From a bacterium (GTDB lineage Bacteria > Joyebacterota > Joyebacteria > Joyebacterales > Joyebacteraceae), in NCBI GenBank assembly GCA_025774245.1, contig JALGWI010000001.1:20599-84598 (forward strand): 64,000 bases of DNA, read 5' to 3'. Positions within the stretch are counted from its first letter, which is position 1, and each line of letters starts with the position of its first letter. Under the pieces are notes generated by a model. It ran no database searches and was not told the origin of the DNA. It saw only the letters and a program-made list of their open reading frames with translations. Of the stretch, positions 6,627-57,194 are shown piece after piece. A program made the translations under genes and the position numbers.

Positions 6627-6931
6627 CCCGCGCTCGGTCGGGTCGACGCGGTCCGTGGTCCGCTCGCAGGCTTCGCCCACCCTGCGGTGCCTTTCCTGAT
6701 CAACTCCTCACTCTTTCGCTGGACTCGTTTGGCGGGATGAGTTATCATAGCTTTCTTGGCTGACTCGGGGCGGTGGTCGGAAACCGCCCGCACTCTTTGA
6801 TCCGGGGATCCCCCGCTGGGCAGCGCCCCCAGGCGCGTGATCACGGGGGCTCTCTTGCGCAGAGCCCGGACGAAACGGCGAGGTCCGTCCGGCTCGTCTG
6901 AATGCACCAGGTGGACTTCAAAGGAGGAGGG

Positions 6932-8242
6932 ATGCAGAGGCGACGTGTCGTGATCATGGGAGCGGCCGGGAGGGACTTCCACAACTTCAATCTCGTCTAC
7001 CGCGACCGCCAGTCGCACGAGGTCGTCGCCTTCACCGCGACGCAGATTCCGGACATCGCCGGAAGGGCGTACCCGGCTGAGCTCGCCGGCTCGCTCTACC
7101 CGCACGGCATCCCGATCCACCCCGAAGAAGATCTCCCCGCTCTCATCGCCGAGCACAAGATCGACGACGTCGTCTTCGCCTACAGCGACGTGCCGCACGA
7201 GTACGTGATGCACAAGGCTTCGCAGGTGAACGCTCTCGGGCCGCACTTCCTCCTGCTCGGCGCTGAGGAGACCATGGTGAAGTCGAAGCGGCCGGTCGTT
7301 TCGATCTGCGCCGTCCGGACCGGCTGCGGCAAGAGTCAGACGACGCGGAGCGTCGCGGAGATCCTCACCGGGCAGGGGAAGCGCGTGGTCGTCATCCGCC
7401 ACCCGATGCCGTACGGCGACCTCAGGGATCAGATCTGGCAGCGCTTCGGCGAGTACGACGACATGATCCGCGAGAAGTGCACGATCGAGGAGATGGAGGA
7501 GTACGAGCCGCACATCGCGCGCGGAAACGTCGTGTACGCGGGCGTCGACTACGAGCGCATCCTCGAGGAGGCGGAGAAGGAGGCCGACGTCGTTCTCTGG
7601 GACGGCGGGAACAACGACGCCTCTTTCTACGTTCCCGACCTCCTCATCGTCGTGGTGGACCCGCACCGCGTCGGCCACGAGCTCACGTACTACCCGGGCG
7701 AGCAGAACCTCAGGAGCGCCGACGTCGTCCTCATCAATAAGGAGGACACGGCCAGACTCGAAGACATCGAGCAGCTTCAGAAGAACATCGCTTCGGTCAA
7801 CCCGGACGCCGCGATCATCCATGCGCACTCGCCGGTCACCTTCGAGGAGAAGGTCGACCTCAAGGGCCTGAAGGTCCTCGTCGTCGAGGACGGCCCGACG
7901 CTGACCCACGGCGGCATGAAGATCGGCGCGGGCACCGTCGGGGCGCTCGCCGCCGGGGCCGTTCCGGTCGACGCGAGGGAGCACGCCACCGGGAAGATCG
8001 CGGAGATGTACGAGAAGTATCCGTCGATCGGTACGCTCCTCCCGGCCGCCGGCTACAGCCCGGAGCAGGTGGCCGACCTCGAGGCCACCATCAACGCCGT
8101 CGACTGCGACTACGTGATCATCGGCACGCCGATCGACCTCCGCAAGCTCATCGACATCAAGAAGCCGAGTGTGAGGGTAAGCTACGAGCTCGAGGTCGTC
8201 GGCGGCCCGAGTCTCGAGGACGTTCTTTCGGACGCGCTCTGA
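6932..8242 (+). CDS. Cyclic 2,3-diphosphoglycerate synthetase-like P-loop protein (cpgS family), by motif recollection
   Basis: Within track ORF 6902..8242. Start at M11 (ATG 6932, AGGAGG 6 nt upstream). N-terminus VIMGAAGRDFHNFN. Walker A CAVRTGCGKSQTTRSV. ~437 aa. Confidence 0.45.
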   Translation: MQRRRVVIMGAAGRDFHNFNLVYRDRQSHEVVAFTATQIPDIAGRAYPAELAGSLYPHGIPIHPEEDLPALIAEHKIDDVVFAYSDVPHEYVMHKASQVNALGPHFLLLGAEETMVKSKRPVVSICAVRTGCGKSQTTRSVAEILTGQGKRVVVIRHPMPYGDLRDQIWQRFGEYDDMIREKCTIEEMEEYEPHIARGNVVYAGVDYERILEEAEKEADVVLWDGGNNDASFYVPDLLIVVVDPHRVGHELTYYPGEQNLRSADVVLINKEDTARLEDIEQLQKNIASVNPDAAIIHAHSPVTFEEKVDLKGLKVLVVEDGPTLTHGGMKIGAGTVGALAAGAVPVDAREHATGKIAEMYEKYPSIGTLLPAAGYSPEQVADLEATINAVDCDYVIIGTPIDLRKLIDIKKPSVRVSYELEVVGGPSLEDVLSDAL

Positions 8243-8318
8243 TCGGGCACGCGCGGGCGGGAAGGCAGTGCCGCCGCCGGCGCAATCCCGACGCGCGCGA
8301 CCATCGAGGGAGGCGCCA

Positions 8319-9458
8319 TTGAAGATCCACGAGTATCAGGCGAAGGAGATCCTCATGCGCCACGGCGTCCCGATCCCGCGGTTCGAGATCGTGACGACGC
8401 CGGCGGACGCCAGGAAGGCGGCCGAGGACATCGGGAGGATGGTGGTCGTCAAGGCGCAGGTTCACGTCGGCGGGCGCGGGAAGGCCGGCGGCGTGAAGCT
8501 CGCCAAGACCGCGGATGAGGCCGAGGCTCACGCCTCGAACATCCTCGGAATGGACATCAAGGGCCTCACGGTCGAGAAGATCATGATCTCGGACGCCGTC
8601 GATATCGACCGGGAGTACTACATCGGGATGATCGTCGACCGCCAGACGAAGAAGCCCGTCTACATGGTGAGCGAGGCGGGCGGGATCGACATCGAGCAGG
8701 TCGCGAACGAGACCCCCGAGAAGATCCACAAGCTGGCCATCAACCCGGTGAAGGGCCTCTCCGCCGCCGACGCCTCGACCCTGGCCGCGAAGATCGAGTC
8801 GCGTCCCGAGGTGGCCGCGAAGGTCGCCGAGTTCATCACGAAGCTCTACGACGGCTTCATCGGGAGCGACGCGTCGCTGGCCGAGATCAACCCGCTCGTC
8901 GTCACGCCGGACGGGGAGGTGTGGGCCGTCGACGCCAAGATGAACATCGACGACAACGCGCTCTACCGCCACCCCGACATCGCCGAGATGCGCGATCCCG
9001 CGGGCGAGACCGACGAAGTGAGGAAGGCGAGGGAGATGGGGCTCTCCTACGTCAAGCTCGACGGCAACGTCGGGTGCCTCGTCAACGGCGCCGGGCTGGC
9101 GATGACCACGATGGACGTCATCCAGCACTACGGCGGCGCGCCGGCGAACTTCCTCGACATCGGCGGAAGCTCGAGTCCCGACAAGGTCGTCACCGCGCTC
9201 GAGATCATCACGTCCGACCCGAACGTCAGGTCGATCCTCATCAACATCTTCGGCGGGATCACGCGCTGCGACGACGTGGCCAGAGGCCTCGTGCAGGCGC
9301 TCGAGCAGACGTCGATCGAGATCCCGATCGTGGTGCGGCTGACCGGGACCAACGAGGACGAAGCCAGGAAGATCCTGGCCAAGCACCAGTTCGTCTCCGC
9401 CACCACGATGGACGAGGCGGTCGAGAAGGCTGTCGAGCTGGCGAAGCAGCCGGCGTAG
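8319..9458 (+). CDS. sucC: Succinyl-CoA synthetase (ADP-forming) beta subunit
   Basis: Within track ORF 8268..9458. TTG start at L18 ([12 protein letters not shown]...) with GAGGGAGG upstream. ATP-grasp and ligase-CoA motifs are present throughout. Confidence 0.85.
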
Positions 9459-9471: not shown

Positions 9472-10344
9472 TTGAGCATCTTCGTCGACGAGAACACGCG
9501 CGTTTGCGTACAGGGGATGACCGGCCGCGACGGCGCGTTTCACACGAGGAGCATGGTCGAGTACGGGACGAAGGTCGTCGCGGGCGTGACGCCGGGCAAG
9601 GGCGGGCAGGAGATGGACGGGATCCCGGTCTTCAACACCCCGAAGGAGGCCGTCGACGCCACGGGGGCGAACGCCTCGATCCTCTTCGTTCCCGCGAAGT
9701 TCGCCGCCGGGGCCGTCATCGAGGCGGCCGAGGCGGGCGTCAAGGTCGTCGTCTGCGTGAGCGAGGGAATCCCGACGCTCGAGGTGTCGAAGATCTACCA
9801 GAGGCTCGGGGAACTCGGCACGCGGATGATCGGACCGAACTGCCCCGGGATCATCAGTCCCGGCAAGTGCAAGCTCGGGATCATGCCCGGCCGGATCCAC
9901 GAGCAGGGCGGGATCGGCGTCGTGTCGCGGAGCGGAACGCTGACCTACGAGGTCGTCGACCAGCTCGGGCGTCACGGGTTCGGGCAGTCGACCGTCATCG
10001 GCATCGGCGGCGATCCGATCATCGGCACGAGCTTCATCGACGCGCTCGACGCGTACGAGAAGGACCCCGAGACCGAGGCGGTCATTCTGATCGGAGAGAT
10101 CGGAGGGACCGACGAGGAGCAGGCGGCCGACTTCATCAAGGCGAACATGTCGAAGCCGGTTGTGAGCTTCATCGCGGGCCGCACGGCTCCTCCGGGCAAG
10201 CGCATGGGCCACGCCGGCGCCATCATCGCCGGCGGGAAGGGCACGGCGCAGGAGAAGATGGACGCGATGGCGGCGGCCGGCGTACCCGTGGCCGATCGTC
10301 CGAGCGAGCTTCCTGGTCTCATCAGAGCCGCGCTCGGGAGGTGA
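9472..10344 (+). CDS. sucD: Succinyl-CoA synthetase alpha subunit
   Basis: TTG start with AGGAGG upstream. Motifs GxTGxxG (VQGMTGRDG) and the catalytic-His region ([14 protein letters not shown]) are present. Confidence 0.85.
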
Positions 10345-10346: not shown

Positions 10347-10718
10347 ATGACGAAGCAGGGAACCGACGGGGCTACCGACAGGAAGTGGCGCTATCCCGAC
10401 AGGAGCGAGCACCCCGACGTCGAGATCTTCGTGTACGACAAGTGGTGCAAGGCCTGCGGCATCTGCTACGCGCTCTGCCCGGTCGGCGTCTTCGAGGCCG
10501 ACAAGGCCGGCTGCCCCGTGGTCGCGCATCCCGAGAAGTGTATCGCCTGCAACCTCTGTGAGATGCTCTGTCCGGACATGGCGATCACGGTCTACAAGGA
10601 GCGGAAGAAGGCCGCCGCGAAGGCGGAAGGCGCAGGCAAAGGATCGGCGGCGAAGGCCGCCGCCGACGCGGGCGCAGAAGGCAGCGACTCGAAGAAGGGC
10701 GGTGAGACGAGACCCTAG
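10347..10718 (+). CDS. 2-oxoacid:ferredoxin oxidoreductase delta subunit (2x[4Fe-4S] ferredoxin) with an Ala/Lys-rich C-terminal tail
   Basis: In the frame of track ORF 9504..10718. ATG at 10347 overlaps the sucD stop. Two CxxCxxCxxxCP motifs ([24 protein letters not shown]). Tail [26 protein letters not shown]. Confidence 0.7.
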
Positions 10719-10733: not shown

Positions 10734-11885
10734 ATGGCCGGGAACAACAAGACCAGCAAGCAGGTCATTCAGGGGAACGAGGCCTGCGCTATCGGGGCTC
10801 TCGCGGCAGGAGTGACGTTCTTCGGCGGCTACCCGATCACGCCGTCCTCGGAGATCGCGGAGATCCTGTCGCAGACGCTCCCGCTCGTCGGGGGGCGTTT
10901 CATCCAGATGGAGGATGAGATCGCCTCGATCGCCTCGATCATCGGCGCCTCGCTCGCGGGAGCGAAGTCGATGACCGCCACGAGCGGTCCGGGCTTCTCA
11001 CTCATGCAGGAGAACCTGGGCTTCGCCGCGATCGCCGAGATCCCCTGCGTGATCGTGAACGTGCAGCGGGCCGGACCGTCCACGGGGCTTCCGACGCAGC
11101 CTGCCCAGGGTGACGTGCAGCAGACCCGCTGGGGGACGCACGGCGATCATTCGATCATCGCTCTCGCGCCGTCCACCGTCCTCGAGTGTTTCACGATGAC
11201 GATCGACTGCGTCAATCTGGCGGAGGCGTACAGGACGCCGACGGTCCTCCTCATGGACGAGGTCATCGGCCACATGCGCGAGACCGTCGTCCTGCCTCCA
11301 CGGAGCTCCTACAAGGTTGTCGAGCGCCGCACGCCCGATCCGGACACCACGGACTACTGCCCGTTCGAGTGCGACGGGACCGAGGTCGCTCCTCTGGGCG
11401 CCTTCGGCGGCGCCCACAGGTTCCACGTGACGGGCCTCACGCACGACCGGCACGGCTTCCCGACGATGGTCGGGGAGGAGGTCGACCGCAAGATCCGCTG
11501 GATCGTCGACAAGATCGAGGACAGGGCGGACGAGCTCGCCGACCTCGAGGAGTTCGAGACGGACGACGCCGACGTGCTCCTCTTCGCGTACGGATCAACG
11601 GCGAGGGTCGCGAAGTCCTCCGTTCGCGCGCTCAGGGAGCGGGGGGTCCGAGCCGGGATGATCCGCGCGAAGACGATCTGGCCATTCTCGCGGAAGCGCC
11701 TCAAGGAGCTCTCGGGAAGGCTCAAGCTCATCGTCGTGCCCGAGATGAACCTCGGGCAGCTCATCATCGAGGTCGAGCGGGCGATCGCAGGCACCGTTCC
11801 GGTGCGGCACCTGGGTCGCATCGACGGGCACCTGTTCGAGCCCGACGAGATCACCGAATTCGTCCTGCGGGAGGTGGGGAAATGA
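10734..11885 (+). CDS. 2-oxoacid:ferredoxin oxidoreductase alpha subunit (2-oxoglutarate specificity suggested only by the adjacent sucCD)
   Basis: Track ORF. N-terminal [33 protein letters not shown] is typical of KorA/PorA alpha subunits. Confidence 0.8.
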
Positions 11886-12784
11886 GCCAGGCCATCGAGA
11901 CGGCGCGGACCTACCTCCGACCGAGCAAGAAGCTCCCGACGGTCTGGTGCGGCGGCTGCGGCCTCGGCATCGTGATGAGCGCGATGATACGCGCCATCGC
12001 CCGCGTCGGGTGCGAGAAGAACGACGTGGCGGTGGTGTCGGGGATCGGCTGCACCGGCCGCCTTCCCACGTACGTCGATTTCAACACGCTCCACACCACG
12101 CACGGCCGCGCGCTCGCGTTCGCAACCGGCGTGAAGCTCGCCACCCCCTCGCTCACCGTCATCGCCGCGATGGGAGACGGCGACGCGCTCGCGATCGGCG
12201 GCAACCACTTCATCCACTCCTGCCGCCGGAACATCGACATGACGGCGATCGTCGCCAACAACTCGATCTACGGCATGACGGGGGGGCAGTACTCCCCGAC
12301 GACGCCACACGGGAAGAAGGGGACGACCGCCCCGTACGGCAACGTCGAGCACGCCTTCGACGTGGCGGCTCTGGCCGTCGGTGCGGGCGCGACCTTCGTG
12401 GCCCGGTCGTCGGTCTACCACGCCAGGGAGCTCGACAAGCTCATCGAGAGGGCGATTCGTCACAAGGGCTTCTCGGTCGTGGAGGCCGTGTCGAACTGCT
12501 ACACCAGCTACGGGAGGCTCAACAAGTACTCGTCTCCCGTCGACATGTTGAGATGGATGAAGGAGAGCTCGGTCACGGTCGGGGCGGCGGAGGAGATGGC
12601 GCCGGAAGAGCTCGAGGGGAAGTTCACGCGCGGCGTGATCACCGAGCGGGAGCTCCCGGAGTTCATCGAGTCCTACGACGGTCTGGCGAAGCGCCTGGCC
12701 TCTGATCCGGCAGCGATCGAACGGGTCAAGGGCATCATCCGGACGTTCGACGAGACGGCCGAGAGACTGAACGCAAAGGGGTAG
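11882..12784 (+). CDS. 2-oxoacid:ferredoxin oxidoreductase beta subunit (TPP-binding)
   Basis: In the frame of track ORF 11186..12784. ATG overlaps the alpha-subunit stop (ATGA). Motifs WCGGCGLG...GIGCTGR and the TPP motif GDGDALAIGGNHF. Confidence 0.8.
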   Translation: MSQAIETARTYLRPSKKLPTVWCGGCGLGIVMSAMIRAIARVGCEKNDVAVVSGIGCTGRLPTYVDFNTLHTTHGRALAFATGVKLATPSLTVIAAMGDGDALAIGGNHFIHSCRRNIDMTAIVANNSIYGMTGGQYSPTTPHGKKGTTAPYGNVEHAFDVAALAVGAGATFVARSSVYHARELDKLIERAIRHKGFSVVEAVSNCYTSYGRLNKYSSPVDMLRWMKESSVTVGAAEEMAPEELEGKFTRGVITERELPEFIESYDGLAKRLASDPAAIERVKGIIRTFDETAERLNAKG

Positions 12785-12881: not shown

Positions 12882-13439
12882 ATGAGCGAAACAAAGGGCA
12901 GGTACGAGATCCGCCTCTCGGGCGCCGGCGGCCAGGGACTGATGCTGGCCGGCAAGCTCCTCGCCGAGGCGGCGTCGGTCTACGACGGGAAGAACGCGGT
13001 GCAGACGCAGAGCTACGGTCCGGAGGCGCGAGGCGGGAAGAGCAAGACCGACGTCGTCATCTCCGACGGGGAGATCGATTACCCGAAGGCGACGAAGGTC
13101 AACGTGCTCCTCGCCATGAGCCAGCCGGCCCTCGACGAGTACATCGGCTCGCTCCAGCCGGGAGGCATGCTCGTGGTCGACTCCTACCTGGTGGAGGAGC
13201 CAGGACGGGACGACGCCATCGCCATCCCGTTCACGATGCTCGCCCTCGAGGAGTGCGGTCGGAAGCTCTTCGCGAACGTCGTGGCGCTCGGGGCCGTCGC
13301 CGAGTTGACGCAGGCCGTCACCTGGGACAGCCTCCGTTCCGCAGTCCTCGCGAGGGTGCCGAAGGGCACCGAGAAGATCAACGACAGCGCTCTCGACGTG
13401 GGGCGCCAGGCCGCGCGGCAGTTCCTCGAAGGGAAGTGA
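12882..13439 (+). CDS. 2-oxoacid:ferredoxin oxidoreductase gamma subunit
   Basis: Track ORF. YEIRLSGAGGQGLMLAGKLLAEAA is typical of OFOR gamma subunits. Confidence 0.75.
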   Translation: MSETKGRYEIRLSGAGGQGLMLAGKLLAEAASVYDGKNAVQTQSYGPEARGGKSKTDVVISDGEIDYPKATKVNVLLAMSQPALDEYIGSLQPGGMLVVDSYLVEEPGRDDAIAIPFTMLALEECGRKLFANVVALGAVAELTQAVTWDSLRSAVLARVPKGTEKINDSALDVGRQAARQFLEGK

Positions 13440-13440
13440 C

Positions 13441-13863
13441 ATGGAAACGACCTTCCTCATGATCAAGCCACGGGCCGTCGCCGACGGCCTGGTCGGCGAG
13501 ATCATCGCGGCGCTCGAGGACGGGGGCTTCGCCATCGCCGGCGTCGCATCGCGCCGACTCACCGTCGAGGAGGCGTCCGGCCTCTACGAGGCTCACGTGG
13601 GGAAGCCGTTCTTCGGGGCCCTCGTGGAGTTCATGACGTCGGGCGTCTCGATCGGCATCCTCCTGAACGCCCCGGACGCCATCGCGGCGCTCAGGAGGCT
13701 CGTGGGGGCGACCAAGCCGTCCGAGGCAGAGCCGGGCACGATCCGGGCGCGCTTCGGGAAGGACCTGCAACAGAACGCGGTTCACGCGTGCGACTCCGCC
13801 GAGAGGGTGGAGCGCGAATCGGGATTCTACTTCGGCGACTGCCCGAGGGCCGTCGTCGGTTGA
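13441..13863 (+). CDS. ndk: Nucleoside diphosphate kinase
   Basis: TFLMIKPRAV..., NAVHACDS active-site region. 140 aa. Confidence 0.85.
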   Translation: METTFLMIKPRAVADGLVGEIIAALEDGGFAIAGVASRRLTVEEASGLYEAHVGKPFFGALVEFMTSGVSIGILLNAPDAIAALRRLVGATKPSEAEPGTIRARFGKDLQQNAVHACDSAERVERESGFYFGDCPRAVVG

Positions 13864-13905: not shown

Positions 13906-14397
13906 ATGGAGAAGACGGCTCTTCGTGGTGAAGACGCGGCGGACCGGCTCGCTGTCGTCGACGAGGTCGCGTCGAAGTACGCCGGCACGAAGGGCGCCCT
14001 GATTCCGATTCTGCAGAACGTCCAGTCGCGGATCGGATACCTCCCGACCGAGGTGATGGAACGGATCGGCGAGAAGGCCGGCGTCCCCGCCGCGCAGGTG
14101 TTCGGCGTCGCGAGCTTCTACTCGCAGTTCAGGCTCGAGCCCGTGGGCAGGTACGTCGTCAAGGTGTGCCACGGTACCGCCTGTCACGTTCAGGGAGCGG
14201 GAGCGATCACCGAGGCCGTCTGTTCGGAGCTCGGCGTCGAGGACGGCGAGACGACGGCCGACGGGAAGTTCACCGTCGAGTCGGTCGCCTGCATCGGCTG
14301 CTGCAGCCTGGCGCCGGTGATCATGATAGAAGAGAACTCGTTCGGGCGTCTGACGCCCGACGAGGCGCGCAGGATCGTGAGGGAGTACGGAGACTAG
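13906..14397 (+). CDS. NuoE/HoxE-family thioredoxin-like [2Fe-2S] subunit of an NAD(H)-linked oxidoreductase
   Basis: Track ORF 13900..14397. ATG at 13906 has better GGAG spacing. Motifs CHGTACHV ... CIGCCSLAPV (the four 2Fe-2S Cys ligands). Confidence 0.7.
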   Translation: MEKTALRGEDAADRLAVVDEVASKYAGTKGALIPILQNVQSRIGYLPTEVMERIGEKAGVPAAQVFGVASFYSQFRLEPVGRYVVKVCHGTACHVQGAGAITEAVCSELGVEDGETTADGKFTVESVACIGCCSLAPVIMIEENSFGRLTPDEARRIVREYGD

Positions 14398-14470
14398 CGC
14401 GGGGAGGAGCGCCGCGCGCCGTGCCGGCCCGGAGCCGGCGGGCGCGTGGCGCTTGCGCGAGGAGACCACG

Positions 14471-16258
14471 GTGGCGGATCGGGGCACTCAGATGACGGTC
14501 ACGGTCGGGCTCTCGAGCTGCGGCATCGCGGCGGGCGCCGCCGATGTGATGGCCGCCTTCGAGAGAGAGATCGAGAAGCGCGGCTTGGACGTCCGCCTGA
14601 GAAGAACCGGTTGCATCGGGATGTGCTACTCCGAGCCGATCGTCGATGTCGACGCGCCGGGAGCGGGGCGGCACACCTACGGCGGCATCACCGCGGACCA
14701 GGTCGAGCGCATCGTCGACGAGCACATCGCCGGCGGCGCGCCGGTCGACGAGTGGCTCGTGCGGGCGGAGGGAAGGGATCTCCCCGACGAGGCGTACTAC
14801 TCGCGGCAGGTGAGGCTCGTCCTCAGGAACGCCGGGATGATCGATCCCGAGTCGATCGACGAGTACATCGAAGCCGGAGGCTACGCGGCTCTCGAGAAGG
14901 CCGTCACGTCGATGAAGCCCGAGGAGGTCGTCAAGGAGATCACCGATTCGGGCCTCAGGGGACGCGGCGGGGCCGGGTTCCCGACCGGCGTGAAGTGGGA
15001 TCTCGCGAGGAAGCAGCCGGGCGGGAAGAAGTACGTCATCGTCAACGCCGACGAGGGCGATCCCGGCGCGTTCATGGACCGGAGCATCCTGGAGGGCGAT
15101 CCGCACTCCGTCCTCGAGGGTCTGGCGATAGCCGCCTACGCGATCGGGGCGGACGAGGGCTACTTCTACGTGCGGGCGGAGTACCCGCTCGCCGTGAAGC
15201 GCCTCGGCATCGCGATCACGGACGCGCGGGAGCGCGGGTACATCGGCGAGAACGTGTTCGGGAGCGGCTTCTCGCTCGACGTCTACATCAAGGAAGGCGC
15301 GGGCGCGTTCGTCTGCGGTGAGGAGACGGCGCTCATGGCGTCGATCGAGGGGCGACGGGGGATGCCCAGGATCCGTCCGCCCTACCCGGCCGCCGAGGGC
15401 CTCTGGAAGAAGCCGTCGAACATCAACAACGTCGAGACCTACGCGAACGTCGCCTGGATCATCTCGAACGGGGCCGAGGCCTACGCGAGCCACGGCACCG
15501 AGACCAGCAAGGGCACGAAGGTCTTCGCCCTGGCCGGCAAGATCGAGCGCGGCGGGCTCGTGGAGGTCCCGATGGGGATGACGCTCCGCGAGGTCATCGA
15601 CGAGGTCGGCGGAGGCGTACCCGGGGGCCACGACTTCAAGGCCGTGCAGCTCGGCGGCCCGTCCGGCGGCTGCATCCCGCGCGAGTTCATCGACATCGCG
15701 GTCGACTACGAGTCCGTGACGAAGACCGGCGCGATCATGGGATCGGGCGGGATGGTCGTCATGGACGACACGACCTGCATGGTCGACATCGCGCGTTTCT
15801 TCCTCAACTTCACCCAGGACGAGAGCTGCGGGAAGTGCACGTTCTGTCGCGTCGGCACGAAACGGATGCTCGAGGTGCTCGAGAGGATCTGCGGGGGGGA
15901 GGGGCGCGAGGGCGACATCGAGCTCCTCGAGGAGCTCGGAGAGCAGATCATCGCGTCGTCGCTCTGCGGACTGGGCCAGAGCGCCCCGAATCCCGTGGTG
16001 ACGACCCTCAAGTACTTCAGGGACGAGTACGAGGCGCACGTCAAGGAGAAGCGCTGCCCGGCGCACGCATGCAAGGCTCTCATCACCTACGGCATCGACG
16101 CGGAGAAGTGCACGGGTTGCACGCTCTGCACCAAGGTGTGTCCCACGGGCGCGATCGCAGGCGAGAAACGGGAGCTGCACACGATCGACCAGGACCTGTG
16201 CACGAAGTGCGACGCGTGCAGGCGGGCCTGCAAGTTCGACGCTGTCACCGTGGATTAG
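14471..16258 (+). CDS. NuoF/HoxF/HydB-family flavoprotein: NAD(H)- and FMN-binding, with an N-terminal thioredoxin-like domain and C-terminal 2x[4Fe-4S]
   Basis: Within track ORF 14453..16258. Candidate starts are GTG 14471 (GAGGAG 7 nt upstream) or ATG 14492. Motifs GRGGAGFPTGVKW (FMN/NADH), ESCGKCTFCRVG (N3 4Fe-4S), and C-terminal CTGCTLCTKVCP / CTKCDACRRAC. Confidence 0.75.
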   Translation: MADRGTQMTVTVGLSSCGIAAGAADVMAAFEREIEKRGLDVRLRRTGCIGMCYSEPIVDVDAPGAGRHTYGGITADQVERIVDEHIAGGAPVDEWLVRAEGRDLPDEAYYSRQVRLVLRNAGMIDPESIDEYIEAGGYAALEKAVTSMKPEEVVKEITDSGLRGRGGAGFPTGVKWDLARKQPGGKKYVIVNADEGDPGAFMDRSILEGDPHSVLEGLAIAAYAIGADEGYFYVRAEYPLAVKRLGIAITDARERGYIGENVFGSGFSLDVYIKEGAGAFVCGEETALMASIEGRRGMPRIRPPYPAAEGLWKKPSNINNVETYANVAWIISNGAEAYASHGTETSKGTKVFALAGKIERGGLVEVPMGMTLREVIDEVGGGVPGGHDFKAVQLGGPSGGCIPREFIDIAVDYESVTKTGAIMGSGGMVVMDDTTCMVDIARFFLNFTQDESCGKCTFCRVGTKRMLEVLERICGGEGREGDIELLEELGEQIIASSLCGLGQSAPNPVVTTLKYFRDEYEAHVKEKRCPAHACKALITYGIDAEKCTGCTLCTKVCPTGAIAGEKRELHTIDQDLCTKCDACRRACKFDAVTVD

Positions 16259-16335
16259 GATGTCCTCCAGTCGGCCCGGCGGGCGGATCGGCGTGATACC
16301 TGGGGGCGGGCACGAATCTGGGAAGAGGTTCTCAG

Positions 16336-19300
16336 TTGGCGCTCATCAAGATCTCCCTGAACGGTCGAGAGGTTGAGGTCGATGCGGCCTCGACGATCCT
16401 CGAGGCTGCGCGGCAGCACGGGATCGAGATCCCGACGCTCTGCGACGATCCGCAGCTCCCACCCTTCACGTCGTGCTGGATCTGCGCGGTCAAGCTCGAA
16501 GGAATGAAGAGGTACATCCCGTCGTGCGGCACGCGGGTGGCGCCCGGCATGAAGATCTGGACCGACACGGACGACGTCCGGGCCGTCAGGAAGATGGCTC
16601 TCGAGCTCCTTCTCTCGAACCACCGGGGCGACTGCGTGGCGCCGTGCAAGGCCGCGTGCCCGGCCGGCGTCGACGTCCAGGGATACATCGCGCTCATCTC
16701 CCAGGGGAAGTACCGGGAGGCGGCGAAGCTCGTCAAAGAGGTCAATCCGTTCCCGCTCTCGATCGGTCGCGTCTGCACGCGGCCCTGTGAGTCGGAGTGT
16801 CGCAGGAACGCCGTCGACGGTCCGGTCGGGATCGACTATCTCAAGCGCTTCGCGGCCGACTGGGACGCCGGCCACGACGACGCCTACGTCCCGACGACCG
16901 CCGCCTCGACCGGCCGCCGCGTGGCGATGGTCGGGGCCGGTCCGGGGAGCCTGACCGCCGCCTACTACCTCGCCCAGAAGGGGCACGAGGTGACGATCAT
17001 GGAGGCGCTCCCTGCGGCCGGCGGCATGCTCCGCTACGGCATCCCGGAGTACCGCCTTCCGAAGAAGACGCTCGACACGGAGATCGGTCTCATCACCACG
17101 CTCGGCGTGCGCGTCGAGTACAACAAGGCCCTCGGCCGCGACTTCAAGCTCGCCGACCTCTTCGCCGACGGGTACGACGCCGTCTTCCTCGGACTCGGGG
17201 CGATGGGGAGCCGGAAGATGAAGGTCCCCGGCGAGGAGCTCGAGGGCGTCTGGGCCGGGACGGAGTTCCTGAAGAAGATGGGACTCGGCGAGGACGTGGC
17301 GATCGGCAAGCACGTCGCCGTCATCGGCGGCGGCAACACGGCGGTCGACGCCGCGAGGACGAGCCTCCGGCTCGGCGCCGAGAAGGTGACGATCGTCTAC
17401 CGGAGGTCGCGCACCGAGATGCCCGCCTGGGACGTCGAGGTCGAGGCCGCGCTCGAGGAGGGCGTCGAGATGCACTTCCTCGCCGCCCCGACCAGGATCG
17501 AAGGCGAGGGCGCCTGCGAGAGGATGGAGTTCATCCGGATGGAACTCGGGGAACCCGACGAGAGCGGCCGCAGGCGGCCGGTTCCCGTCGAGGGCTCCGA
17601 GGCCATGCTCGAGGTCGACAACGTGATCGCGGCCATCGGGCAGGTACCCGACCTCTCCGCGATCCACGAGACCGTCGAGAGCGACCCGGAATCGCTCGAG
17701 GCCAAGCTCGAGCTCACGCGCTGGGGAACGATCGTGGCCGACGAGACGACCGGGGCCACCTCGGTCGAGCGCGTCTACTCCGGCGGCGACGTCGCCCGAG
17801 GAGCGGCGACCGCCATCGAGGCGATCGCCGACGGAGGCAAGGCCGCGGCGGCCATCCACAGTTACCTCACGGGCGAGACCGAGTACGTCCCGCCGTCCTA
17901 CTTCAACATCACGAAGGAACGATGGGACTCGTTCCCGGAGAGCCAGCTCGTCGGGATCGAGAGGAGCGAGCGCGAGCGGATGCCTGAGCTCGGGGTCGAG
18001 GAGAGGATCCGCATCTTCGAAGAGGTCGAGCTCGGGTACACCGAGGAGCAGGCCCGCAGGGAGGCGGCGCGCTGCCTCGAGTGCGGCTGCGTGGGAGCGT
18101 TCACGTGCCAGCTCCGCGAGTACGCCGCCGAGTACGGCGCCTCGTCCGACCGTTTCGGCGGCGAGGTCGTCGAGGATCCCGCCGACGAGCGCCATCCGTT
18201 CATCCGCCTCGAGCCCGAGAAGTGCATCCTGTGCGGGCGCTGCATCCGGATCTGCCAGGAGGTGGAGGGCGCGGCCGCGCTCGGTTTCTTCCGGAGGGGC
18301 TTCCAGACGCAGATGAAGCCGGCTCTCGAACAGGCGCTCGCGGGGACGACCTGCGAGTCGTGCGGGCAGTGCGTCACGAGCTGTCCGACCGCCGCCATCT
18401 CGGCCGTCGCCGACCTTCCGAAGCCCGGTCCGTGGGCCCTCGAGGCGACGCGGTCGACGTGCAGCTTCTGCGGGACGGGGTGCGCGATCGTGCTCCGTAC
18501 CGTGGAGGGCAGCCTGGCGACGATCGAGCCCGCCCCCGACGCGGGCATCAACGAGGGCAACCTCTGCGTCCGCGGACGGTTCGGGCATCTCGCGGCCGGG
18601 GAGAGGCTCGCTTCCCCGCTCGTGAAAAGGAACGGAAAGCCGGCCGCGGCCTCCTGGGACGACGCGGTCGGGCTCGTGTCGAAGCGCCTCATGGCGGTCG
18701 CCCGCGAGCACGGCCCCGGGGCCGTGGCGGTCTTCGGCTCGCCGGGGCTCACGAACGAGGAGGCCTACCGTCTCCAGCAGCTGGCCCGCGCCGGGCTCGG
18801 GACGCCGAACGTCGCGTCGTTCGGCCTCGCCCGCGAGTCGGCGGTCTTCGAGGCGCTCTCTCGCGCGTTCGGGCGCGCTGCTTCGACGGCGTCGTACGCC
18901 GACCTGAGATCGGCCGAGACGATCCTCCTCATCGACTCGGACATCGCCGAGGAGGAGACCGTCTCCGGGATCGCCATACGGAAGGCGGTCGCCGCCGGCG
19001 CGCGCCTCGTCGTGATCTCGCCCGACGAGACGAGGATGGCGAGGCTCGCCGACGTCTGGATCCGTGTCGGGCGCGCCGACGTCGGAAGCGTGCTGGCGGC
19101 GATGATCGAGCACGCCACCTCGAAGGGACTCGCCGGACCGGCGAGGGTGACGCAGGGCGTCGACAACCTGGAGGAGTTCAAGGCCGCGGTCGCGGCCATC
19201 TCCGAGGGCGGGAGGGTCGCCGAGGGCGAGCCCGTCGTGAAGGGCGGCGACACCACAGATGCGATCGTTGCGGCGGCCGAGGCCTACGCGTCGGCCTCGC

Positions 19301-20196
19301 GGGCCGTCCTGGTCGCGACGGGGACGGCGTTCGAGCCGGCGACCGCCGGCCGCGACGCCTCGCTCGCCGTCGGGCTTGCGGTCCTCTCGGGCCACGCCGA
19401 GGGCGGAGGATCGGGGATCCTCTTCCTCAGGGCCCGGGCAAACGGGCAGGGTCTGACCGACGCGGGTCTCGACCCGCGCTTCCTGCCCGGTCACGCCCCC
19501 GCGACCTCCGCCGATGCCCGCGCGCGCGTCGGGAAGCTCCACGGGGCGCCGGTACCGGCGCCTTCTGTCGGCGACGCCGCCGCGCTGTTTGCAGCCATCG
19601 AAGACGGGAGCGTCCGCGCGGCCCTCGTGGTCGGGGAGGATCCGGTGGCCGGAGCGGACGACCCGGACCGGGTCCGCCGCGTCCTCGGGAAGCTCGACTT
19701 CCTGGCCGTCCTCGACGTCGGGGAGACGGAGACGACGCCACTCGCGGCCGCCGTCCTGCCGCTCGCCTCGCTCGGCGAGCGGGCCGGGACGTTCACGAAC
19801 AGCGAGCGGCGAGTGCAGCGCGTGGGCGGGCCCCTCGCGCCGCCCTCGGGTCGCACGAACCTCGAGGTGCTCGGCGCCCTGGCCGTAGGCCTGGGACTCG
19901 GGACGGTCGAGACCGACGCGATCGCGGTGGCGAAGGAGGCCGGCGCTGCCTGGAACGGCACAGGCAACGCCGGAGGCAGTGCGGCCGACGGCTTCCGCTG
20001 GGGGGGCGAGACCCTCTACCCGGACCGCTTCGCGACCGGAACCGGGCGCGCGGACCTCTCGGTCCCGGAGCCTCGCACGCCTGCCGTCGTGTTCGATCCC
20101 CGCTGGGCCGATCCTCTGGAGGGCCGGCTCTCCCATTACGCCGAGGACGCCGGGCTCCCGCCGCACGTCGTCGCGCGCGGGGGAGATCGACCTTGA
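16336..20196 (+). CDS. Large multidomain Fe-S flavoprotein: N-terminal [2Fe-2S] ferredoxin, GltD/NfnB-like FAD/NAD(P)H oxidoreductase, 2x[4Fe-4S], and a NuoG/formate-dehydrogenase-like molybdopterin-oxidoreductase domain that appears to lack a catalytic Cys/Sec
   Basis: Track ORF (1286 aa). 2Fe-2S: TLCDDPQLPPFTSCWICAV...SCGTR. GltD-like: GRRVAMVGAGPGSLTAAYYLA...HVAVIGGGNTAVDAA. 4Fe-4S: CILCGRCIRIC, CESCGQCVTSCP. MopB-type: CSFCGTGCAIV...C. I saw no hydrogenase H-cluster motifs and no Sec/Cys in the FdhA active-site position. Confidence 0.65.
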   Translation: MALIKISLNGREVEVDAASTILEAARQHGIEIPTLCDDPQLPPFTSCWICAVKLEGMKRYIPSCGTRVAPGMKIWTDTDDVRAVRKMALELLLSNHRGDCVAPCKAACPAGVDVQGYIALISQGKYREAAKLVKEVNPFPLSIGRVCTRPCESECRRNAVDGPVGIDYLKRFAADWDAGHDDAYVPTTAASTGRRVAMVGAGPGSLTAAYYLAQKGHEVTIMEALPAAGGMLRYGIPEYRLPKKTLDTEIGLITTLGVRVEYNKALGRDFKLADLFADGYDAVFLGLGAMGSRKMKVPGEELEGVWAGTEFLKKMGLGEDVAIGKHVAVIGGGNTAVDAARTSLRLGAEKVTIVYRRSRTEMPAWDVEVEAALEEGVEMHFLAAPTRIEGEGACERMEFIRMELGEPDESGRRRPVPVEGSEAMLEVDNVIAAIGQVPDLSAIHETVESDPESLEAKLELTRWGTIVADETTGATSVERVYSGGDVARGAATAIEAIADGGKAAAAIHSYLTGETEYVPPSYFNITKERWDSFPESQLVGIERSERERMPELGVEERIRIFEEVELGYTEEQARREAARCLECGCVGAFTCQLREYAAEYGASSDRFGGEVVEDPADERHPFIRLEPEKCILCGRCIRICQEVEGAAALGFFRRGFQTQMKPALEQALAGTTCESCGQCVTSCPTAAISAVADLPKPGPWALEATRSTCSFCGTGCAIVLRTVEGSLATIEPAPDAGINEGNLCVRGRFGHLAAGERLASPLVKRNGKPAAASWDDAVGLVSKRLMAVAREHGPGAVAVFGSPGLTNEEAYRLQQLARAGLGTPNVASFGLARESAVFEALSRAFGRAASTASYADLRSAETILLIDSDIAEEETVSGIAIRKAVAAGARLVVISPDETRMARLADVWIRVGRADVGSVLAAMIEHATSKGLAGPARVTQGVDNLEEFKAAVAAISEGGRVAEGEPVVKGGDTTDAIVAAAEAYASASRAVLVATGTAFEPATAGRDASLAVGLAVLSGHAEGGGSGILFLRARANGQGLTDAGLDPRFLPGHAPATSADARARVGKLHGAPVPAPSVGDAAALFAAIEDGSVRAALVVGEDPVAGADDPDRVRRVLGKLDFLAVLDVGETETTPLAAAVLPLASLGERAGTFTNSERRVQRVGGPLAPPSGRTNLEVLGALAVGLGLGTVETDAIAVAKEAGAAWNGTGNAGGSAADGFRWGGETLYPDRFATGTGRADLSVPEPRTPAVVFDPRWADPLEGRLSHYAEDAGLPPHVVARGGDRP

Positions 20197-20307
20197 CTTG
20201 GGGCCCATCCGTTTCTACCATGATGCTCATCCTTCGAGCCTTGGGCAGGGACCCCGGCGGGGGTCTCTGCGGACCAGGAGCCACACGTTAGAACCGTCGG
20301 AGGCACT

Positions 20308-20496
20308 ATGGCAGTTCCCAAGAAGAAGACGTCGAAGGCGAGGGGGAGAAAGCGAAGGACGCACAAGAAAGCGGTTCGTCCCTCATTTTCTGCCTGCCCT
20401 TCGTGCGGCGAGCCCAAGCTCTCGCACCGCGTCTGCCCGCACTGCGGAACGTACAACGGGCGCGAGATCGTGAGCGGGGAGAAGGAGAAGGAATAG
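20308..20496 (+). CDS. rpmF: 50S ribosomal protein L32
   Basis: [21 protein letters not shown]...[25 protein letters not shown]. 62 aa. Confidence 0.85.
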
Positions 20497-26005: not shown

Positions 26006-26860
26006 ATGGCCAAAACCAATCGTCTGATTCAGCGACTCAAAGCGCTCAGGAAGCGCGACTCCGGCATTCCGCGGGAGAGGCAGCGATCGCTTCGGCGGCT
26101 CTGCGATCTCCTTGGCGTCCGGTTTCTCGATCTGCGTCTGTTGAACCAGGCGCTCATGCACCGTTCGTACGTGCATGACGTCGCCCTGGACAGGGGCGAG
26201 TCGAACGAGCGGATGGAGTTTCTGGGCGATGCGGTCCTGGGACTCCTCGTCAACGAGCACCTCTACGCGCGCTTCGAGCAGAGGCAGGAGGGGAGGCTCA
26301 CTAAGATCAAGTCGCTCGTCGTGAGCGAGCCGATCCTCATGAAGAGGGCGGAGGAGATCTCGCTCGGCGACTACATCCTGCTCTCGGAGAACGAGCGGCT
26401 CTCCGGCGGCGCGATGAGGGCCTCGATCCTGTCGGACGCCTTCGAAGCCGTGATCGGCGCGATCTATCTCGACTCGGGACTGCTGGCCGCCCGCGGGTTC
26501 GTCGAGAGGCACCTGCTTCTGGGCATCGACGAGCTGCTCGAGATCGACGAGTACAAGAACTACAAGAGCATGGTCCAGGAACACGCCCAGAAGAAGATGG
26601 GGTCGAGACCCCGGTACCGCGTCGTCTCCGCCAAGGGTCCCGAGCACGAGCGGACCTTCTTCGTCGAGCTCCGGCTCGGCGGTCGCGCCCTCGGGCGGGG
26701 CGAAGGGAAGAACAAGAAAGAAGCCGAGCAGCTGGCGGCGAGGAACGCCCTTGCGAAGCTCGGCCTGCTGGCTGAGAACAACGGCCGACGCCGGTCCAGG
26801 TCGCGGCGCTCCCGCCGCGGGCGGCGCCCGCGCCAAAGGAAGAAGGGGGGCGCGAAATGA
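26006..26860 (+). CDS. rnc: Ribonuclease III with a long Arg-rich C-terminal extension
   Basis: In track ORF 25967..26860. Start at M14. Motifs ERMEFLGDAVL (RNase III signature) and a dsRBD, followed by a ...RRRSRSRRSRRGRRPRQRKKGGAK tail. Confidence 0.8.
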   Translation: MAKTNRLIQRLKALRKRDSGIPRERQRSLRRLCDLLGVRFLDLRLLNQALMHRSYVHDVALDRGESNERMEFLGDAVLGLLVNEHLYARFEQRQEGRLTKIKSLVVSEPILMKRAEEISLGDYILLSENERLSGGAMRASILSDAFEAVIGAIYLDSGLLAARGFVERHLLLGIDELLEIDEYKNYKSMVQEHAQKKMGSRPRYRVVSAKGPEHERTFFVELRLGGRALGRGEGKNKKEAEQLAARNALAKLGLLAENNGRRRSRSRRSRRGRRPRQRKKGGAK

Positions 26861-28056
26861 GCTCGACCCTCACCGAGAAGGAAGCCGCGGGCTCGCGGCT
26901 GACCGAAGAGCAGCAGATGTTGAAGGAGCTCTGCGCGCAGATCGCCCGCGAGAAGATCCTCCCCGTCCGCGCCGAGTACGACGAGACCGGCGACTTCCCG
27001 TGGGACGTCGTCAAGGTCATGGCCGACTCGGACATCTACGGGGTCTACATCCCGGAGGAGTACGGCGGGTTCGGGGGCGGCGTCACCGAGATGTGCATCG
27101 CCACCGAGGAGCTGTCGAAGGTCTGCGGCGGGATCGCGCTCGCCTTCGCCGCCTCGGCGCTCGGCGCCTACCCGATCCTCCTCTTTGGGAACGACGAGCA
27201 GAAGGCGAAGTACCTGCCGCCGATCGCTGCGGGCGAGAAGCTCGCAGCCTTCGGGCTCACCGAGGCGAACGCGGGGAGCGACGCCGGCGCCATCGAGACC
27301 AGGGCGGAGCTTCAGGGGGACGAGTACGTCCTGAACGGCACGAAGCAGTGGATCACGAACGGCGGCGAGGCCGAGATCTACACCGTGATCGCGCGCACGA
27401 AGAAGGGGACCGGCATCCGCGGCATCTCGGCGTTCATCGTCGAGAAAGGAACCCCCGGGTTCGACTTCGGCAAGAAGGAGAACAAGATGGGGATCCGCGG
27501 GTCGGCGACCCGCGAGTTGATCTTCCAGGACGTCCACGTGCCGAAGGAGAACCTGCTCGGTCGCGAGGGCATGGGGTTCATAGTCGCGATGCGCACCTTC
27601 GACAAATCGCGGCCCGGCGTTGCGGCGCAGGCGCTCGGCATCGCCGAGGGCGCCTTCGACGAGGCCGTGAAGTACGCGCGGCACCGCGAGCAGTTCGGGC
27701 AGCCGGTCGCGTCGTTCCAGGGGCTCCAGTTCATGCTGGCCGACATGGCGACCCAGATCGAGGCGGCCCGGGCGCTCGTCTACGAGGCGGCGAGGATGGT
27801 CGACTCGGGCGAGAAGGACATCGGCAAGATCTCGGCGATGGCCAAGGTCTTCGCCTCCGACGTGGCCATGAAGGTCACGACCGACGCCGTGCAGGTCATG
27901 GGCGGTTACGGCTACATGAAGGAGTACCCCGTCGAGAAGATGATGCGCGACGCGAAGATCACCCAGATCTACGAGGGCACGAACCAGATCCAGCGCTCGA
28001 TCATCGCCTCGTCGATCATCAAGGAGAGCGCCGCGAAGGAGAAGAGGGGGAAGTAG
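26857..28056 (+). CDS. Acyl-CoA dehydrogenase (short-chain/butyryl-CoA dehydrogenase-like)
   Basis: ATG overlaps the rnc stop (ATGA). FGLTEANAGSDAG, QWITNGG, and the catalytic region YEGTNQIQRSIIA. Confidence 0.8.
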   Translation: MSSTLTEKEAAGSRLTEEQQMLKELCAQIAREKILPVRAEYDETGDFPWDVVKVMADSDIYGVYIPEEYGGFGGGVTEMCIATEELSKVCGGIALAFAASALGAYPILLFGNDEQKAKYLPPIAAGEKLAAFGLTEANAGSDAGAIETRAELQGDEYVLNGTKQWITNGGEAEIYTVIARTKKGTGIRGISAFIVEKGTPGFDFGKKENKMGIRGSATRELIFQDVHVPKENLLGREGMGFIVAMRTFDKSRPGVAAQALGIAEGAFDEAVKYARHREQFGQPVASFQGLQFMLADMATQIEAARALVYEAARMVDSGEKDIGKISAMAKVFASDVAMKVTTDAVQVMGGYGYMKEYPVEKMMRDAKITQIYEGTNQIQRSIIASSIIKESAAKEKRGK

Positions 28057-28137
28057 CGGCGGGGAGTCGCCGGCCCTCGACCGCCGCGCTGCCCGGCGCG
28101 GCGGCCCGAGGCGCCCCCTTCACTCACGGACGGACGC

Positions 28138-28929: not shown

Positions 28930-28987
28930 GAGGGCCGGGCACCGGGGCAGGCCCCACGGCGGGCCCCATCGGCCAGGGAGTGCGGCG

Positions 28988-30366: not shown

Positions 30367-30489
30367 ATCGTCCAATTCGACTGCAACCCAATCACGAAGC
30401 TCCCTGCCAGGGAGCGTGTCTGCGCGCGGCAGCACTACCTCACGTGAGCCCCTCGCTGCGACGCAGTGCGTCCGAAACCGGAGGTGGAG

Positions 30490-33156: not shown

Positions 33157-33248
33157 CGGGCACTGCGCCCGGATGGATGGGCCTCGCGCGGGCGAGGCGA
33201 GCGCGGGATAGCGGCCGCGCCCTGGACACCAGACGGAGGAAACGGACG

Positions 33249-52038: not shown

Positions 52039-52109
52039 TTTTCCACTTTCCGGACCGTCTCGAGGGGGCAGGCTGCCGCCTGTACACCGGACCGTGAGGG
52101 GAGAGTTGG

Positions 52110-57182: not shown

Positions 57183-57194
57183 CGGAGTGACCCT

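Follow-up and report, generated by a model that had tools for sequence, protein, structure and literature searches.

In this study, we analysed a stretch of 64,000 nucleotides of contig JALGWI010000001.1 (assembly GCA_025774245.1), which we call the window and whose coordinates we use throughout. The analysis centres on three genes of its forward strand, nfnC (or stnA, 13906..14397), nfnB (stnB, 14492..16258) and nfnA (stnC, 16336..20196). The genes are co-directional, and the GC content at their third codon positions (0.86-0.93) is of the coding type in all three. Judging by homology, we consider it very probable that they encode a heterotrimeric electron-bifurcating transhydrogenase of the Stn/NfnABC type (Type 1, 'Nfn-Bfu'). 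The predicted reaction, which would be reversible, is 2 NADPH + NAD+ + Fd(ox) <-> 2 NADP+ + NADH + Fd(red), where Fd is ferredoxin, the same as that reported for StnABC (PMC7483475). The Sporomusa-type Nfn (StnABC), NfnABC and Nfn-Bfu are one and the same enzyme, which was purified in 2020 (Kremp, PMC7483475) and solved by cryo-electron microscopy in 2023 (Kumar, PMC10482914) and 2025 (Li, PMC11829005; also PMC12018979). An initial annotation of the window had proposed a hybrid between an Nfn-like and a NuoEFG-like enzyme, possibly bifurcating, that could couple NADH, NADPH and ferredoxin. Homology to the characterised StnABC/NfnABC enzymes (PMC7483475, PMC10482914, PMC11829005, PMC12018979) supports this proposal.

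Subunits, domain order and cofactor ligands

The first gene, nfnC, encodes a NuoE/HydC-like small subunit of 163 residues that is predicted to carry the gating [2Fe-2S] cluster. We place its start at the ATG at 13906, behind a GGAG sequence; the list of open reading frames (ORFs) places it at the GTG at 13900. The protein consists of a single thioredoxin-like 2Fe-2S domain (PF01257, E 8e-52) and is of the NuoE/HoxE type according to NCBIfam, as the initial annotation had anticipated. Its cluster motif, C-x4-C ... C-x3-C, reads VCHGTACH ... ACIGCCSLAP. The best matches in the PDB are NfnC of Thermococcus sibiricus (9n5u_C, E 1e-52), HydC (8a6t_C), NfnC of Caldicellulosiruptor saccharolyticus (9bov_C, E 2e-50) and StnA (8oh5_A).

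The product of nfnB is a NuoF/HydB-like subunit for flavin mononucleotide (FMN) and NAD(H), as indicated by Pfam and PDB matches. The listed ORF spans 14453-16258, with alternative upstream starts at TTG 14453 and GTG 14471. However, alignment to the solved homologues begins at Met14, and the likely start is therefore the ATG at 14492. Pfam finds, in this order, a weak PF01257-like segment at the N-terminus, Complex1_51K, SLBB, NADH_4Fe-4S and a C-terminal 2x[4Fe-4S] Fer4 domain, which bears out the earlier description of a NuoF/HydB-like protein with an N-terminal thioredoxin-like part and C-terminal ferredoxin clusters. The protein is thus composed of a thioredoxin-like N-terminus, a Gly-rich FMN loop, the B1 [4Fe-4S] site, a Cys/His linker whose position is a Zn site in solved homologues, and a C-terminal ferredoxin-reduction domain. 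It aligns end to end with NfnB of C. saccharolyticus (9bov_B, E 7e-266, 65.4% identity) and with StnB (8oh5_B, E 3e-257, 63.1% identity; both identities from the printed alignments). Every cluster cysteine common to these two proteins is kept, that is, those of the B1 cluster (C459/462/465/505), the linker site (C535/540), the B3/B4 clusters (C553/556/559/563 and C583/586/589/593) and the three-Cys N-terminal site (C23/54/58). The latter, called B5, holds a [2Fe-2S] cluster in Sporomusa ovata and Zn in C. saccharolyticus, and its three cysteines are common to all, including the window protein. Retained as well are the FMN loop, GLRGRGGAGFPTG and NADEGDPGAF, a loop discussed for StnB (PMC10482914). 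The thioredoxin-like domain, the Cys/His linker, the C-terminal 2x[4Fe-4S] domain, GLRGRGGAGFPTG and NADEGDPGAF are hallmarks of the bifurcating type, and they support the assignment to NfnABC.

The third gene, nfnA, starts at a TTG codon with GGGAAGAGG upstream and encodes a large subunit of 1286 residues, in which Pfam and NCBIfam recognise a NuoG/FdhA-like scaffold with an input module for NADP(H) fused into it. The Pfam matches (E <= 0.01) are Fer2_4 (PF13510, residues 4-78), the first 16 positions, or first half, of NADH-G_4Fe-4S_3 (residues 85-100), Fer4_20 (PF14691, 100-178), Pyr_redox_2 (PF07992, 195-500), Fer4_Nqo3 (PF22117, 621-687), Molybdop_Fe4S4 (PF04879, 704-751) and Molybdopterin (PF00384, 757-1171). 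Neither PF01568 (Molydop_binding) nor an [FeFe]-hydrogenase H-cluster domain is found among them, and the initial annotation had likewise seen no H-cluster motifs. Residues 1-99 (16336..16632) form a HydA/NuoG-type [2Fe-2S] domain with C36, C47, C50 and C64. An H96-x3-C100-x3-C104-x3-C108-P motif begins at the end of this part and runs on into the next one, residues 100-575 (16633..18060), which comprise the inserted GltD/NfnL-like module (PF14691, PF07992) plus a linker. This module holds two [4Fe-4S] sites (C100/104/108, C147/151/155 and K170), a fold for flavin adenine dinucleotide (FAD) with GAGPGS, an NADP(H) fold with GGGNTA and YRRS, and R240. Residues 576-700 (18061..18435) contain the other half of the split motif, C580-x2-C583-x-C585-x5-C591, along with the NuoG-type 2x[4Fe-4S] segment (PF22117; C630/633/636/640 and C673/676/679/683). 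Residues 701-1190 (18436..19905) correspond to domains I-III of formate dehydrogenases (PF04879, PF00384), with the [4Fe-4S] site kept and without a Mo/W ligand, and a poorly conserved C-terminal tail (residues 1191-1286 plus stop, 19906..20196) completes the protein.

The order of domains given for this fusion in the initial annotation agrees with the Pfam results. Two of its qualifications do not hold. The protein had been called permuted, but the GltD-like module is inserted into the His/Cys motif of a NuoG/HydA-type N-terminus, with no permutation. The order had also been regarded as unusual, with the implication of novelty; it is the already published, defining architecture of StnC/NfnA, and the system is not new. 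StnC was described as a NuoG-like protein with an inserted GltD/NfnB-like FAD-NADPH module, whose N-terminal [2Fe-2S] domain is of the hydrogenase type and whose FdhF-like domain at the C-terminus is 'catalytically inactive' (PMC10482914, PMC7483475). The match between this order and that of the window protein supports the NfnABC assignment, and it extends to the split motifs (HxxxCxxxCxxxCP / CxxCxCx5C) on either side of the GltD insertion. The three subunits and the order of their genes (NuoE-like, NuoF-like, large fusion) are also those of StnABC of S. ovata (8oh5/8oh9).

The best PDB matches of the large subunit are NfnA of C. saccharolyticus (9bov_A, 1178 aa, E 5e-255), StnC (8oh5_C, 1172 aa, E 4e-227) and NfnA of T. 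sibiricus (9n5u_A, 963 aa, E 8e-187). All three alignments begin at residue 1 and the whole architecture is common. Identity reaches 43-47% over the first ~880 residues (StnC ~43%; C. saccharolyticus NfnA 47% over 884 columns). All three window proteins find their best matches in solved NfnABC/StnABC chains over their full length, which speaks for this assignment. C. saccharolyticus NfnABC (9bov/9bp5; Li 2025, PMC11829005) is the best overall match, with the same cluster complement by sequence. T. sibiricus NfnABC (9n5u/9n5v; PMC12018979, PMC9304861) shares the reaction module and supplies the best match for nfnC, but its large subunit has a truncated formate-dehydrogenase-like part and one cluster fewer, whereas in the window protein the C-terminal half is complete and of the bacterial type. 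With 1286 residues, the window protein is 114 residues longer than StnC.

Ligand residues were compared with NfnA and StnC in alignments printed by HMMER, which reach residue ~880-915; for the C-terminal half we used separate alignments to true formate dehydrogenases together with structural comparison. All 26 cluster-assigned cysteines (C36/47/50/64; C100/104/108; C147/151/155; C580/583/585/591; C630/633/636/640; C673/676/679/683; C709/712/716/744) align with cysteines in both NfnA and StnC. Adding Lys170 and His96, the latter a putative ligand suggested by the HxxxC motif, gives 28 predicted ligands, as needed for the 1x[2Fe-2S] + 6x[4Fe-4S] of the solved structures. The remaining cysteines common to NfnA and StnC (C114, C295, C398, C671) are lost in the window protein. 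K170 of StnC, a 'strictly conserved' ligand of the FAD-proximal [4Fe-4S] that is essential by mutagenesis, corresponds to K170, and R239, which lies near the FAD and is mutationally important, corresponds to R240. H96, K170, R240, GGGNTA (331-336) and the YRR of YRRS (355-358) do not vary among 118 aligned full-length homologues (43-100% identity). GGGNTA represents the GxGxxA form of the second dinucleotide fold, the NADP(H) motif named for Stn (PMC7483475), and from this motif we predict the nucleotide specificity. The sequence shows the complete cofactor-binding complement of Nfn-Bfu and no active site of a formate dehydrogenase or hydrogenase.

The formate-dehydrogenase-like half of the large subunit

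When queried alone, residues 690-1286 align with the catalytic subunits of true formate dehydrogenases. The CSFCGTGC...C motif noticed in the initial annotation is present (C709/C712/C716/C744), and the FdhA-type catalytic Cys/Sec, which had not been found there, is indeed missing. Its place is taken by Arg833-Glu834 (codons 18832..18837), which align to the Cys-His pair of Thermoanaerobacter kivui FdhF (7qv7_S) and to the Sec(X)-His pair of the F420-dependent enzyme 9t1s_L. Across the 118 homologues the six residues found most often in this column (104/118 sequences) are G/V/R/L/A/E, none of them Cys, and such hypervariability indicates no constraint. The surrounding motifs are replaced too: DHCARL[C/U]H by ASFGLARE, GSNTxExHP by DSDIAEEET and DPR by SPD. 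GSNTxExHP and DPR are pterin contacts in formate dehydrogenases. Arg1032 (LRARANGQG) aligns with the conserved active-site Arg of (V/L)RGQNNVQG and occurs in 103 of the 118 homologues; alone, it is insufficient for formate dehydrogenase activity. The motifs of domain III (GEDP, TFTNSERRVQRV) are well kept, while those of the active site and of domain II are lost.

The protein ends where the beta-barrel cap (domain IV) of formate dehydrogenases and NuoG would begin, and the alignment to 7bkb_D stops at the start of the last domain of that chain. PF01568 is missing from all 118 homologues. A cap domain hidden by a frameshift in the 300-nt gap 3' of nfnA was considered and rejected, as this gap encodes rpmF (ribosomal protein L32). 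StnC has neither the Mo ligand nor the cap. In S. ovata a long C-terminal region, reported to be disordered, replaces the beta-barrel; the tail of the window protein is mostly of high confidence in an AlphaFold model of the half. This predicted model (predicted local distance difference test, pLDDT, 89.9; predicted template-modelling score, pTM, 0.92) gave query-normalised Foldseek scores (TMq) of 0.76-0.83 to formate dehydrogenases, ~0.8 also to Nap, 0.77 to C. saccharolyticus NfnA, 0.74 to StnC (same region) and 0.6-0.66 to NuoG.

The two parts of the large subunit differ in conservation. Within the near clade, identity is 33-57% in the formate-dehydrogenase-like half compared with 75-80% in the redox-active part, and the tail (1191-1286) shows 34% at this distance and 10% in the far clade. 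The faster change of this half, like the missing Mo ligand and cap, speaks for the NfnABC assignment, and it fits the published view of an off-pathway scaffold needed for assembly (PMC10482914). A homologous locus of a delta-proteobacterial metagenome-assembled genome (MAG; CAWEUH010000031.1, L023, 9992-12070) has an nfnC-nfnB-nfnA cassette in which the large subunit, of ~690 aa, reaches only as far as the NuoG-type clusters, the formate-dehydrogenase-like half being absent altogether. This contrasts with the reported finding that deletion of the domain from S. ovata StnC prevents assembly.

Gene neighbourhood, host and distribution

The initial annotation had placed the three genes downstream of a ferredoxin-dependent 2-oxoacid oxidoreductase, and a complete set for such an enzyme does lie upstream on the same strand. 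The series starts with a 446-aa protein with a partial match to CobW/HypB/UreG GTPases (6902-8242), directly upstream of sucC (8268-9458). Together with sucD (9472-10344), sucC encodes succinyl-CoA synthetase (Pfam ATP-grasp_2, Ligase_CoA, CoA_binding). A korD/porD-like delta subunit (10347-10718; 123 aa, 2x CxxCxxCxxxCP) was found inside the tail of a spurious 404-aa ORF between sucD and korA. It is followed by korA (10734-11885), korB (11882-12784), which overlaps korA by ATGA, and korG (12882-13439), which encodes the fourth subunit; Pfam domains of the set are POR_N, PFOR_II, TPP_enzyme_C and POR. With korD, the 2-oxoacid:ferredoxin oxidoreductase is therefore of the four-subunit D-A-B-G type. 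Between it and the nfn genes lies ndk (13441..13863; PF00334, E 8e-43), which abuts korG and ends 42 nt upstream of nfnC. On the other side, rpmF (20308-20496, + strand, 62 aa) stands between nfnA and plsX, so that the classical rpmF-plsX-fabHDG-acpP-fabF cluster follows directly. A sigma-70-like TTGACT-17-TACCAT match (20193-20221) falls on the nfnA stop codon. A promoter scan yielded three promoter-like matches, which count for little in a non-model phylum.

Gaps within the kor-ndk-nfn stretch measure 0-95 nt. No terminator-like site was detected between these genes, hits of the scan being no more frequent than in shuffled sequences. The order cobW-like GTPase-sucC-sucD-korD-korA-korB-korG-ndk-nfnC-nfnB-nfnA-rpmF-plsX-fabH-fabD-fabG is kept in 22 related MAG species. 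The GTPase gene is conserved upstream of sucC in those related loci whose sequence reaches that far, and its product may be a metallochaperone for the cluster. In distant homologues, the C-B-A cassette recurs among unrelated genes, which marks it as a self-contained unit and makes the linkage to the 2-oxoacid oxidoreductase specific to this lineage. In S. ovata, the stn genes neighbour metVF (methylene-tetrahydrofolate reductase), and host and gene context also differ in C. saccharolyticus.

The host is an uncultured marine-sediment bacterium, a Candidatus Joyebacterota-type MAG of the FCB group, whereas S. ovata is a Firmicute acetogen. An identical large subunit is encoded on JALGVS010000001.1 (assembly GCA_025774585.1). 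The nearest species-level relatives, 72% identical in this protein, are MAGs from Guaymas Basin, Bohai Sea and cold-seep sediments, which Gong et al. (2022) assigned to Candidatus Joyebacterota; more distant ones are labelled Candidatus Eisenbacteria or Effluviviaceae. These relatives come from a scan of a genome collection with peptide patterns of nfnA, which recovered the close clade and a few partial matches and did not recover S. ovata or C. saccharolyticus. As of 2022, Nfn-Bfu in bacteria was found in 'mainly Firmicutes' (PMC9304861), and the genome papers searched on Joyebacterota, Effluviviacota and FCB phyla make no mention of Nfn, transhydrogenase or 2-oxoglutarate oxidoreductase. The present genes extend the taxonomic reach of the family beyond Firmicutes, Synergistetes and Euryarchaeota (PMC9304861, PMC7483475).

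Further downstream of the fab genes lie fabF and rnc and then, ~7 kb from nfnA, genes for an acyl-CoA dehydrogenase, EtfB and EtfA (26857-30184, + strand), the last with an N-terminal 2x[4Fe-4S] ferredoxin domain. These are the Bcd/Etf genes that the initial annotation had mentioned as part of the surroundings. They represent a second possible ferredoxin-linked flavoprotein system in the window, perhaps of the bifurcating type. The genes scanned extend over most of the 64-kb window (up to ~57 kb), and none of them encodes a hydrogenase, formate dehydrogenase or other terminal catalytic partner; no such partner is expected for an NfnABC-type enzyme.

Proposed electron flow and alternative readings

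The steps that we propose are carried over from the solved homologues. NADP(H) would exchange a hydride with the non-bifurcating FAD of the GltD-like module. Single electrons would then pass through the Lys170-ligated proximal [4Fe-4S] and the NuoG-type cluster chain to the FMN of the NuoF-like subunit, where the FMN, the adjacent B1 [4Fe-4S] and the mobile [2Fe-2S] of the NuoE-like subunit would form the bifurcation site. In the high-potential branch, NAD+ would be reduced at the FMN. In the low-potential branch, the swinging NuoE-like domain would deliver the electron to the C-terminal 2x[4Fe-4S] of the NuoF-like subunit, the predicted docking site of ferredoxin. The formate-dehydrogenase-like half would serve as a cofactor-less scaffold with an off-pathway [4Fe-4S], for assembly or oligomerisation. 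As to the physiological role, the gene context suggests that the complex probably reoxidises ferredoxin from the neighbouring 2-oxoacid oxidoreductase and, together with NADH, makes NADPH for biosynthesis. This confurcating direction fits the position of the operon, behind the oxidoreductase, succinyl-CoA synthetase and Ndk, and before rpmF-plsX-fab. In thermodynamic terms the reverse direction, in which NADPH drives ferredoxin reduction for reductive carboxylation, is just as possible.

Several observations weigh against the assignment to NfnABC and its operon setting. Cys114 of StnC, near cluster C7, is Val114 in the window protein, and in S. ovata mutation of Cys114 halves the activity. However, all 118 homologues have V or I at this position, the active T. 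sibiricus enzyme has Val, and the authors of the mutagenesis call Cys114 not strictly conserved; it is therefore not family-defining. The FAD fingerprint of the clade is GxGxxS instead of GxGxxG, a further difference from StnC. The formate-dehydrogenase-like half (18403-20193) scores 229 bits to the formate dehydrogenase 7qv7_S, compared with 150 to NfnA and 136 to StnC, so that the domain has either been eroded less than its counterparts in the Firmicute enzymes or had a history partly separate from theirs. In addition, co-transcription of the kor and nfn genes is deduced only from the short gaps and from the absence of terminator-like sites between them, and the predicted NfnABC function of the window proteins rests on homology.

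A different emphasis, which we hold to be unlikely, would be that the Nfn-Bfu of Joyebacterota and Eisenbacteria-related bacteria is a hard-wired operon partner of the four-subunit 2-oxoacid:ferredoxin oxidoreductase, sucCD and Ndk. It would perhaps run in the bifurcating direction, with NADPH supplying low-potential ferredoxin for reductive carboxylation of succinyl-CoA in a CO2 fixation of the reverse tricarboxylic acid cycle type. Alternatively, the C-terminal domain, unusually similar to formate dehydrogenases, would have kept a ligand-binding or docking role toward that partner.

We consider it quite improbable that the complex is a non-bifurcating NADPH diaphorase or reductase, that is, an enzyme such as Nso of Thermococcus litoralis (NADPH:sulfur oxidoreductase) or SfrAB of Geobacter (NADPH:Fe(III)/ferredoxin oxidoreductase), in which NADPH reduces an external acceptor through the Fe-S chain. 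These are the first-reported roles of homologues. With viologens, flavins and ferricyanide, StnC can oxidise NADPH on its own (PMC7483475), NsoC is 40.6% identical to StnC and its two halves are similar to SfrB and SfrA (Kremp et al., PMC7483475), and the NCBIfam model PRK12814, like a GltD small subunit, covers residues 1-645 of the window protein. However, the window proteins include the whole BfuB/BfuC bifurcation core, at 63-65% identity to that of proven bifurcating enzymes, and this intact, highly conserved core makes a simple diaphorase unlikely. SfrAB has no NuoE/NuoF partners, Nso itself might be an Nfn-type NADH-dependent Fd(red):NADP+ enzyme according to Kremp et al. (PMC7483475), and for the related enzyme of T. 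sibiricus a true Nfn-Bfu identity was demonstrated (PMC9304861).

Slightly less credible still is an electron input or output module physically dedicated to one partner, either the neighbouring 2-oxoacid oxidoreductase or an unlinked catalytic subunit bound through the formate-dehydrogenase-like domain, instead of a free-standing transhydrogenase. The strictly kept neighbourhood of korDABG, sucCD and ndk in 22 species, the better preservation of this domain relative to true formate dehydrogenases than in StnC, and the use of extra subunits by Type 2/3 Bfu enzymes (PMC9304861) would speak for it. Yet the solved homologues are complete as ABC heterotrimers with off-pathway clusters in the formate-dehydrogenase-like part, distant relatives keep the three-gene cassette amid unrelated neighbours, and the cluster contains no extra unassigned gene. 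Soluble ferredoxin would be enough to connect the two enzymes, and a physical partnership is possible but unnecessary.

Hardly tenable is the reading given by automatic annotation, namely a formate dehydrogenase of the Fdh-Bfu/FdsABG type that is linked to NAD(P) and may be bifurcating. PF00384 and PF04879, 25-28% identity and a TMq of ~0.8 to real formate dehydrogenases, Arg1032 and the names in several source annotations favour it; the failed ligand, motif and cap tests led us to reject it, all the more as fdhD and moa/mob genes are absent from the cluster, the corresponding domain of StnC is reported to lack catalytic activity (PMC10482914), and inductively coupled plasma mass spectrometry of C. 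saccharolyticus NfnABC found only Fe and Zn. An ordinary formate dehydrogenase with an intact Mo-ligand Cys/Sec, the outcome that the initial annotation had named as contrary to its proposal, is therefore not what the alignments reveal.

Other relatives of the three proteins were set aside. FdsABG/FdhF and NuoEFG have homologous subunits throughout, and the C-terminal half of the large subunit has the fold of formate dehydrogenases and NuoG. Unlike the window proteins, FdsB and NuoF have no C-terminal ferredoxin domain, neither system has the GltD insertion, and formate dehydrogenases have the Sec/Cys-His pair, intact pterin motifs and the cap. Complex I NuoEFG was rejected because the domain architecture differs and the neighbours are kor/suc/ndk and rpmF/plsX/fab, not nuoA-N. 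HydABC and other Bfu enzymes share the BC core (HydB E 1e-188 to 1e-233, HydC 1e-35 to 1e-50), and the A subunit of HydABC has the same N-terminal 2Fe-2S/NuoG-type cluster scaffold; an [FeFe]-hydrogenase was rejected because there is no Fe-hydrogenase large-subunit Pfam domain and HydA chains match only residues ~580-697, the GltD FAD/NADPH module standing in place of the catalytic input. Classical NfnAB/NfnSL catalyses the same overall reaction, and the GltD-like module matches NfnB of Thermotoga maritima (4ylf_B, E 7e-106) and NfnL of Pyrococcus furiosus (5jca_L, 3e-93). This identity was rejected as well, since the cluster has no gene for the FNR-like NfnA/NfnS and the proximal-cluster Glu position is Lys170; moreover, in the Stn type the FMN/B1/C1 site bifurcates and the FAD does not. 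In acetogens, Stn and Nfn are reported to be nearly mutually exclusive. A glutamate synthase small subunit fails a defining feature.

If the Stn/NfnABC identity holds, Candidatus Joyebacterota and relatives would gain a defined link between their ferredoxin, NADH and NADPH pools, and the conserved coupling to the 2-oxoacid oxidoreductase operon offers a modest hypothesis on the source or the fate of reduced ferredoxin in these organisms. What is new is modest: the host lineage, the sucCD-korDABG-ndk-nfnCBA order in 22 related species, the less-eroded formate-dehydrogenase-like domain and the widespread mislabelling of the large subunit. In none of the 118 full-length homologues of the latter is the Mo-ligand position conserved, yet many metagenomic homologues carry the public labels 'formate dehydrogenase major subunit', 'molybdopterin-dependent oxidoreductase' or 'NAD(P)-binding protein'. 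Such names could wrongly add formate metabolism to models of uncultured sediment bacteria. The nfnCBA genes open no new mechanistic question, and their value lies in annotation and metabolic reconstruction.

Two further groups of genes in the window, both on the + strand, are worth recording. Two paralogous cassettes (52098-59423) are each led by a DUF6754 protein (52098-53348 and 55884-57182), and the three ORFs after the first of these have no Pfam match. Closer to the nfn genes, 30448-38156 encodes two very large proteins of 902 and 1697 aa with beta-helix/PMP/DUF1565 repeats, each with a terminal FlgD_ig-like domain, which suggests that they are secreted or located at the cell surface.

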